Assembly (NCBI GenBank): GCA_030264375.1
Contig: JASCQW010000148.1
Location: 25,447,726 to 25,511,725 of the forward strand
Reading direction: 5' to 3'
Length of the DNA stretch: 64,000 nt
Source: Carcharhinus longimanus
Taxonomy: Eukaryota
The notes under the pieces are model-generated. The model had not been told where the DNA came from. It searched no databases and was given only the letters and a program-made list of their open reading frames with translations. Shown piece by piece: positions 6,560 through 55,960 of this stretch; the stretch's first letter is position 1, and every line of letters begins with the position of its first letter. Both the position numbers and the translations under genes were made by a program.

Positions 6560-7130
6560 ACAACTTTCACAAGCTGAGGTCCGTTGCAAAGCAATTTACA
6601 GCCAGCAAAATACTTCTAAAGTGTGGCCTCTTTTAAATTTTTTTATTTCAAAAAAAAATTCAAATTAAATCCAATTTATGGCCCCCACAGGAGAGACAAA
6701 CTAGATTTAAACCGACAGGATAAGGCATTGCACCCCATCTTGGGCTTGATCTAATGCTTCATCTTAACCAAAAGGTCGAGATGGCTTTGAAAAATTGCAT
6801 CAAGCGACGCTTTAGTTGAACCTCGTAGAATACCCTGATCATTGACTGTCCCCTAGCTTCGGATATCAAGCTGCCCGATCATTGACTCTCCTCTGCCAGG
6901 TAAGTATGTGGCCACTATTGTAATGTAGGAAACTTGGCAGCAAATTTGTCCACACCAAGTTCCTACAAACAATAGTGAGATAATGATCAAATCGTCACCT
7001 TGTGGTAATGTTGATTGAGGAATAAATATTGGCCAGGATGCCAGAGAGAATTCCCCTGATCCTCTTCAAAATTGTGCTTGTGGGATCTTCCTGAGAGGAC
7101 AGATGGTTTAACATCTTGACTGAAAGATAA
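6560..7130 (-). mobile_element. DeuSINE (SacSINE1/AmnSINE1-like), interrupted at 6629-6907
   Basis: Reverse complement carries Deu-domain-like aagatcccacaagcacaattttgaagagg..tcctggccaatatttattcctcaatcaacatt..tttcctacattacaatagtg. The sequence resumes in register across the insertion. Confidence 0.8.
6629..6907 (-). mobile_element. U1/U2 snRNA-derived chimeric retroposon (SINEU-like)
   Basis: 5' end ATACTTACCTGGCAGAGGAGAGTCAATGATC is 27/31 to human U1 nt 1-31. Internal TCTCGACCTTTTGGTTAAGATGAAG is 22/25 to the U2 5' end. A-rich tail. Flanking direct repeat GTGGCC at 6623-6628 and 6908-6913. Confidence 0.85.
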
Positions 7131-55752: not shown

Positions 55753-55754
55753 AC

Positions 55755-55960
55755 CCAGTTTTTTGGTTAAGATCAAGCATGGGTTCAAGGATGTGATTAG
55801 GTGGAAAGCCTGTTCCTGTCAGCTTGGAACTAATATGTCTCTTCTGTGGGGAACATGAATTGGATTAAATTTGAATTGGTATTTGAGCAAACAAGAGATG
55901 GATTAAGGGCTTACCTTACCCACTCTGCACATTGGCTTTGTAACTCGGGAAAGGATTTAA
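55755..55960 (+). mobile_element. U2 snRNA-derived repeat, same family as 6629-6907
   Basis: TTTTGGTTAAGATCAAG, CTGTTCCTGTCAGCTT and a 48-nt block (32/48 ungapped) follow U2 in order. 90/117 ungapped identity to 6773-6657. Confidence 0.8.

Follow-up and report, generated by a model that had tools for sequence, protein, structure and literature searches.

Anatomy of the element and its insertion site

The window, by which we mean the whole 64,000-nucleotide stretch of Carcharhinus longimanus DNA analysed here, carries a short retroposon on its minus strand, inserted into a dispersed repeat, and a second member of the same family on the plus strand. We compared the anatomy of the first element with snRNA genes of the same genome, using a column majority of 30 copies alongside the window copy, and assigned the following features.

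6908..7080, minus strand: 5' part of the host dispersed repeat, which resumes at ~6628-6520; three paralogues are continuous over the empty site
6908..6916, minus strand: 5' copy of the target-site duplication (GGCCAC exact, 8/9 over nine bases)
6857..6907, minus strand: outer head, U1 nt 1-51 (5' end and stem-loop I), from a U1 paralogue of the same genome; majority 51/51 to L035, window copy 30/31 over the first 31 nt
6834..6854, minus strand: second U1 piece, U1 nt 14-34; 20/21 to own-genome U1
6809..6833, minus strand: U4 nt 23-47, taking in the kink-turn of the 5' stem-loop; majority 25/25 to the own U4 gene L055, window copy 17/25
6782..6808, minus strand: linker with an Sm-site-like AATTTTT run, possibly a U4 3' end (a weak match)
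6757..6781, minus strand: U2 nt 7-31 (stem-loop I); majority 24/25, window copy 22/25 to own-genome U2
6658..6742, minus strand: diverged U2 core, alignment above all 1000 shuffles, with two hairpins predicted by folding at 6716-6742 (U2 nt 23-47) and ~6681-6697 (U2 stem IIb)
6629..6657, minus strand: T run, AATAAA and A-rich tail, read from the sequence
6623..6631, minus strand: 3' copy of the target-site duplication (GGCCAC exact, 8/9 over nine bases)
55754..55945, plus strand: second family member, of the U2-only subfamily C, reaching U2 stem-loop III; 79% to the C majority over nt 12-198

The earlier note had placed the start of the insert at U1 nt 1 on the minus strand, and inspection of the sequence puts it there, at position 6907. 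The second partial U1 piece, the U2 5' segment, the further U2-like sequence and the A-rich tail that closes the insert at its 6629 end are likewise present. The makeup proposed at that time, U1-U1-U2, was right as to these three pieces but missed the U4 segment lying between the U1 and U2 parts. The majority of subfamily A, to which the window copy belongs, reads U1 1-51, U1 14-34, U4 23-47, linker, U2 7-31, diverged U2 core, AATAAA and A tail; it ends in a match to U2 nt 115-123 followed by A's. None of 2000 shuffles reached the score of its U4 segment, while 5 of 2000 reached that of the linker against the U4 3' part, and the linker might possibly come from there. In U4, the kink-turn (residues G26-G45) is bound by 15.5K/Snu13, according to the available part of PMC2952850. 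The first 31 nt of the window copy match the U1 paralogues L035 and L031 at 30 and 27 positions, respectively, and the copy is 87% identical to the family majority. With Rfam, the expected snRNA likeness was found for U1 (31.9 bits, E 1.1e-5; gathering score 69.5) but U2 was not significant alone (21.8 bits, E 0.13, under its gathering score), and the gathering score was reached nowhere in the window. Matches to miRNA and snoRNA models near the locus (E 0.68-9.8) were taken as chance.

GTGGCC had been reported at both ends of the insert. The 3' flank in fact reads GAGGCC, yet a duplication exists, either GGCCAC exactly or AG[T/A]GGCCAC at 8/9 positions. The host repeat, which we take to be of the DeuSINE/SacSINE1 type, resumes past the insert as described before, and all three paralogues that reach the site run continuously across it. 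A compensatory pair in U2 stem I, ACC-TTTT-GGT, does not hold up as a family feature: it is private to the window copy (1 of 85 stem-loops, with GCC-TTTT-GGC in 75) and thus represents decay after insertion rather than covariation. A contig of another organism, X12, spans the 5' junction of the insert (covering 6773-7034, with 24 differences), and pieces similar to it occur in the organisms X6 and X8. Since it is also present in contigs of other organisms, the insertion is old and not an assembly artefact. The window element, now decayed, belongs to a short retroposon that is present in many copies and built from U1, U4 and U2 pieces.

Family size, architectures and RNA folding

A search of the same genome returned 3,480 first-look candidates. 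Scoring 40 of them gave 46 matches, and the best 39 other loci among the 3,480 are 75-83% identical to the window copy over most of the length. One linker 21-mer has 172 exact matches in the genome (control 0), so the junction is not single-copy, and the reading of the insert as one of many copies of a SINEU-type family, with snRNA heads, poly(A) tails and repeated addition of heads at the 5' end, is borne out. In a sample of 75 evenly spaced 10-kb stretches (657 kb without N) we found five clear copies and one weak one, against none in a reversed control, and no U1-headed copy. Scaled up, this corresponds to ~18,000 copies of all subfamilies (95% range 5,800-42,000); the U1-headed types likely number in the low thousands, judging from the genome search and the 21-mer counts.

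After removal of eight duplicates and one short contig, the 110 distinct copies show four architectures, C (U2 only), A and B (both U1-headed) and D (U2-headed), as sorted by a rough classifier that left 10 of the 110 copies unclassified and misplaced some. All four share the U2-derived core and have a 3' poly(A) tail, and their majorities are short (216-358 nt, thus <500 bp). Within-subfamily identities among these similarity-selected copies are 0.887 (A), 0.869 (B), 0.893 (C) and 0.952 (D). The C majority matches U2 nt 21-169 at 105/147 positions and that of A, the window type, matches U2 nt 23-123 at 66/92, both above all 1000 shuffles; the internal junctions of A are fixed across 31 copies. 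In subfamily B the U1 head is longer and rearranged, one hairpin is duplicated and the tail is different, and D combines a U2 1-40 head with a decayed U4-like middle. Because its copies are 95% identical, D is the youngest subfamily sampled; copies of A lie ~11% from their majority, suggesting that this type stopped spreading long ago.

Today's snRNAs are matched best at the 5' end of the elements and worst in their core, as would be expected if heads joined a C-like founder later on. Among copies chosen by full-length queries, 19 of 31 A copies and 17 of 29 D copies start within 5 nt of snRNA nt 1. Recurrent addition of snRNA pieces at the 5' end is seen in the series of C, single-U1 (L014), double-U1 and arrayed forms, in B and D, and in the individual copies L191 and L394. 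In the arrayed forms the 40-nt unit made of the outer U1 head and the second U1 piece is repeated in tandem. Such arrays of U1 stem-loop I stand at the 5' end of A copies at L004:1116-1540 and L011:1135-1540 (reverse strand), the latter VNTR-like with ~10 units. Apart from these arrays, no 5' extension is shared among 54 A and D copies; in one D copy (L259), 16 nt are duplicated 55 nt ahead of the head, which suggests a co-carried 5' extension. Copies of different subfamilies also form head-to-tail clusters (L253, L209, L191, L014, L186, L189, L236), and at L253 a repeated short spacer separates them, as in repeated insertion at one site. BLAST found a second 3' module within ~3 kb at 11 of 110 loci; a count of tandem copies by a loose regular expression was dropped, as the expression fired all over a random sample.

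The predicted folds of the four majorities are stronger than those of shuffles (z -2.8 to -5.4), and the master RNAs look structured. In the main hairpin, which covers U2 23-47, presumably the branch-point stem-loop, two mismatches have been closed and one pair is flipped, and the branch-point word is gone. Two stem pairs changed on both sides between A and D, and one D stem pair is T-A in 13 cases, T-G in 5, C-G in 4 and C-A in none (Fisher p 0.017, for copies that are not independent). The absence of GTAGTA noted in the window copy extends to subfamilies A, B and C; the word is intact in D, where it is predicted to be paired within a long stem. Splice-recognition sequences would seem, on these predicted folds, to be lost or folded away in the family RNA, whose remaining modules (U1 stem-loop I, the kink-turn of U4 and Sm-like runs) may allow it to be taken for an snRNP. 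All four subfamilies have internal T4-T7 runs, no box A and only one-mismatch box-B-like words; the T runs and the lack of box A would argue against transcription by Pol III.

A likely partner LINE and its insertion sites in U2 and U1

A search for the zf-RVT domain led to one LINE family. Queried with the homologue P0001, it has relatives in sharks and rays (~60-75%), as fits a cartilaginous fish, and in amphibians (~42%), none of whose names carries the label Tx1. The copies in this genome have the zf-RVT domain and an ORF1 with ZCCHC3-type RNA-binding and CCHC domains; such an ORF1 would mark a Tx1 element. Reverse transcriptase and endonuclease domains were scored in the homologues P0001 and P0015 only, and the endonuclease and reverse transcriptase fragments of the own copies gave no Pfam match. 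By domain content and target site this LINE is likely of the Tx1/Keno type, and the link to Tx1 LINEs that the earlier note cited for crocodilian SINEU has a counterpart here in the ORF domains and the U2 and U1 junctions described below. In five loci its 5' end consists of U1(1-51)+GCTA, the same junction as that of the A outer head, followed by ORF1. Another repeat, without a U1 head, opens with 45-50 nt that also occur in the LINE 5' UTR (L376, L382, L383, L385, L387, L392, L398).

Beside one LINE copy, a U2 sequence is broken by poly(A) at nt 38/39. We searched the whole genome for this pattern (A5 plus U2 nt 39-52, at most one mismatch) and obtained 26 matches, compared with one in the control. 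Element tails account for most of them: 7 belong to the LINE, 10 to D-type copies, 1 to a C copy and 1 probably to a D-type copy; the remainder are a bare poly(A) inside U2, 2 LINE 5' ends and 4 unrelated sequences. The corresponding U1 pattern (A5 plus U1 nt 37-51) has five matches (control 0), all of which follow element tails, four of the LINE and one of a complete D copy, and all of which continue as U1 to nt 162-164 before reaching differing 3' flanks. The D-U1 junction is also spanned by a contig of the organism X12. Downstream of one B copy (L140) comes U1 nt 36-99, inserts at L334 and L350 are flanked by both U2 halves, and at L352 the U2 5' half lies ahead of a LINE piece. Subfamilies C and D and one B copy thus share the target preference of the LINE, and the use of the same exact bases in U1 and U2 makes it likely that the SINE moves with LINE enzymes.

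The snRNA pieces of the heads end at or near these sites (D at U2 1-40, a D variant at 1-37, the first piece of B at U1 nt 37, the inner piece of A at nt 34), so that their lengths fit the U2 and U1 targets. The outer head of A ends at U1 nt 51, not at 36, and the genome-wide junction patterns show no A-type tail at U2 nt 39 or U1 nt 37. Most copies of both SINE and LINE lie outside snRNA genes. At several of the D+U2 junctions the sequence finishes in an A-rich tail, and 3' transduction from a few masters may account for them; for this reason they are not all independent, and such transduction would itself place a master inside U2. Target duplications with a score of at least 9 are rarer in the SINE (A 2/28, D 3/25) than in the LINE (9/23; controls 1-2%). 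The only 3' tail homology between SINE and LINE is a GAATAAAGTA-like stretch, which some B and D copies have. LINE tails abutted a D head in 3 of 16 cases in one sample and in 0 of 30 in a second, and this unreplicated enrichment was discarded.

For the LINE, insertion at the DNA level into promoter-bearing U1 genes follows from three loci. L362 consists of a U1 promoter, U1 nt 1-21, the LINE, poly(A) and U1 37-162, with a 3-kb assembly gap inside; at L372 a U1 promoter block stands directly ahead of a U1(1-51)-headed LINE 5' end, with a U1 gene 1.8 kb away; and at L269 a U1-variant gene is cut at nt 46 by a 5'-inverted LINE. Poly(A)-tailed LINE copies at U1 nt 36/37 and behind U1 promoters were recorded at L329-L333, L362, L269 and L372. 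No promoter block lies upstream of the SINE in any of the 110 copies or among 10, 2 and 3 promoter matches. A single fuzzy promoter match at L005 has the wrong spacing and no octamer, and a further search for snRNA promoters ahead of the SINE gave six matches, five of them U1 genes already found. Such an absence would be expected for masters that are old and for snRNA arrays with gaps. From the shared sites and the head lengths ending at or near them, we infer that the SINE, too, inserted into promoter-bearing snRNA genes.

Some further features were observed around the U2 sites. The LINE-hit loci L334 and L352 have closely spaced U2 copies with a ~220-nt spacer that is homologous between the two contigs, and the sequence directly upstream of the U2 5' half at one D insertion (L336:1000-1055, oriented) is, we assume, 5S rRNA-like.

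Origin of the heads and relation to known elements

Our preferred account, which we consider probable, is that a Tx1/Keno-type LINE mobilises the SINE and that landing in snRNA genes likely supplies both new heads and an upstream Pol II promoter. Subfamily C consists of a diverged, near-full-length U2, whose core recurs in all subfamilies, and on this core U4 and then U1 or U2 5' pieces are stacked at fixed junctions. Tails of LINE and SINE adjoin the same U2 and U1 bases, and in the case of the LINE there are copies behind U1 promoter blocks. A SINE inserted in a true snRNA gene would be transcribed from +1 by the snRNA promoter and polyadenylated at AATAAA, and could so become a new master; capture of promoter and head in this way would explain heads that have nt 1 as their first base and stop close to the target site. 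Type A would have used the same LINE by descent. The donor of its head is a class of U1 paralogues (L035, L037, L039, L042, L264, L265), and L035 itself has an upstream promoter block.

Alternatively, heads could arise when the reverse transcriptase switches template onto free U1, U2 and U4 RNAs, with masters read through from unrelated flanking promoters, a model put forward by Kojima in 2015 (PMC4494074, as far as the available part sets it out). We regard this as unlikely, though it has observations on its side: in L394, a lone D copy has gained a U1(1-48) head but has no promoter, the outer junction of A at nt 51 is off the target site, the mixed tandem arrays at L014, L191, L209 and L253 could be template jumps, and promoter-bearing SINEs were found neither among the 110 copies nor among the promoter matches. 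It leaves unexplained, however, the single-base junctions common to LINE and SINE, the U1 3' flanks that extend beyond the mature RNA end, and the loci with the order promoter, U1, LINE and U1; the 54 A and D copies that, arrays aside, have no 5' extension in common also speak against it.

A considerably less probable alternative is that another LINE (L1, L2, CR1 or RTE) moved the SINE, or at least type A, and that only C and D used the Tx1-type element. The lack of A tails at the U1 and U2 sites, a rate of target-site duplication below that of the LINE and the lack of extended tail homology would agree with this. But type A has its core in common with C and D, the U1(1-51)+(G)CTA junction of its head is also that of the LINE, and B, its closest type, has one copy at the U1 site. 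SINEs that depend on L2 and CR1 end in short tandem repeats, while A ends in AATAAA and A's.

We next compared the family with known snRNA-related elements. The crocodilian SINEU-1, -2 and -3, as described in the accessible part of PMC4494074, have the same U1/U2 heads, poly(A) tails, lengths <500 bp and repeated 5' addition, the same internal T runs and tandem copies, and mixed target-site duplications or none; they, too, share a target with Tx1 LINEs that themselves bear U1 or U2 heads. Subfamily C resembles SINEU-3, and the types with U1 and U2 resemble SINEU-2. SINEU differs in its crocodilian host and in using U1 and U2 only, whereas the shark family includes the U4 kink-turn segment. The shared target there is Mariner-N4, and here it is U1 and U2 themselves. 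In addition, promoter-bearing loci of the partner LINE are seen here, while the same part of PMC4494074 leaves SINEU transcription open. The family therefore works like SINEU and is set apart from SINEU-1, -2 and -3, on that description, by its host and its U4 segment. Descent of both from a common source, by deep ancestry or horizontal transfer, seems to us very improbable. The construction logic is the same, and the crocodilian Tx1-Mar clusters with Keno and includes some families with U1 or U2 heads, but what is available of PMC4494074 finds SINEU in crocodilians only and describes no U4 part, and the outer head of the shark element is identical to a local U1 paralogue. Still more remote is a one-off chimeric snRNA retrocopy or a sum of independent pseudogenes, with which the below-gathering Rfam scores of the window copy would agree but which the genome search, the 172 exact junction matches, the junctions fixed in 31 A copies and the four subfamilies with diagnostic changes refute.

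Keno (Tx1 clade) and Utopia are LINEs inserted before U2 nt 39, according to the part of PMC4640811 at hand, the very site abutted by the tails of the partner LINE and of the SINE. The strict U2 specificity of Keno is not seen in the partner LINE, for which none of 30 sampled tails lies at U2 nt 39 and the genome-wide U1 pattern shows four tails at U1 nt 37. The only U1-targeting element in the same part of PMC4640811 is the DNA transposon Dada-U1, which likewise inserts specifically in U1 genes and differs in being a DNA transposon without poly(A) tail or reverse transcriptase (PMC8869645, available part). SacSINE1 and the CmiSINEs come from the same host group, cartilaginous fish, and differ in their tRNA heads, Deu or CORE domains and L2 tails (PMC5499810, available part); they are unrelated to the element described here. 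Within the accessible literature that was searched (including parts of PMC7245038, PMC5381603 and PMC4758252, with subscription journals, Repbase and Dfam lying outside the search), we found no U4-containing SINE and no U1-targeting non-LTR retrotransposon, and SINEU in crocodilians only. It is quite possible that Repbase has an entry for the shark family.

The fullest reading of these results is an independently evolved mosaic SINE superfamily in cartilaginous fish, the first with U4, whose LINE targets both U1 and U2 genes, whose heads and Pol II promoters were captured there and whose RNA may pass as an snRNP. We put it forward tentatively, at somewhat less than even chances. If it is true, promoter capture by insertion would answer how SINEU-type elements are transcribed. 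The genome of Carcharhinus longimanus shows a second, larger radiation of snRNA-headed SINEs, with a third snRNA donor. The loci described here make targeted insertion into snRNA genes, followed by capture of promoter and head, testable. Related species have insertions in common, so that their presence or absence could be scored as a marker in the phylogeny of sharks or rays. Annotation can also mistake copies for snRNA genes where their U1 or U2 5' ends are intact. The U1 paralogues of this genome (L031-L042, L263-L272) fall into several divergent classes with different upstream blocks, and a tandem unit at L046:1500-2600 combines a U2 gene with a U5-like sequence, presumably U5.
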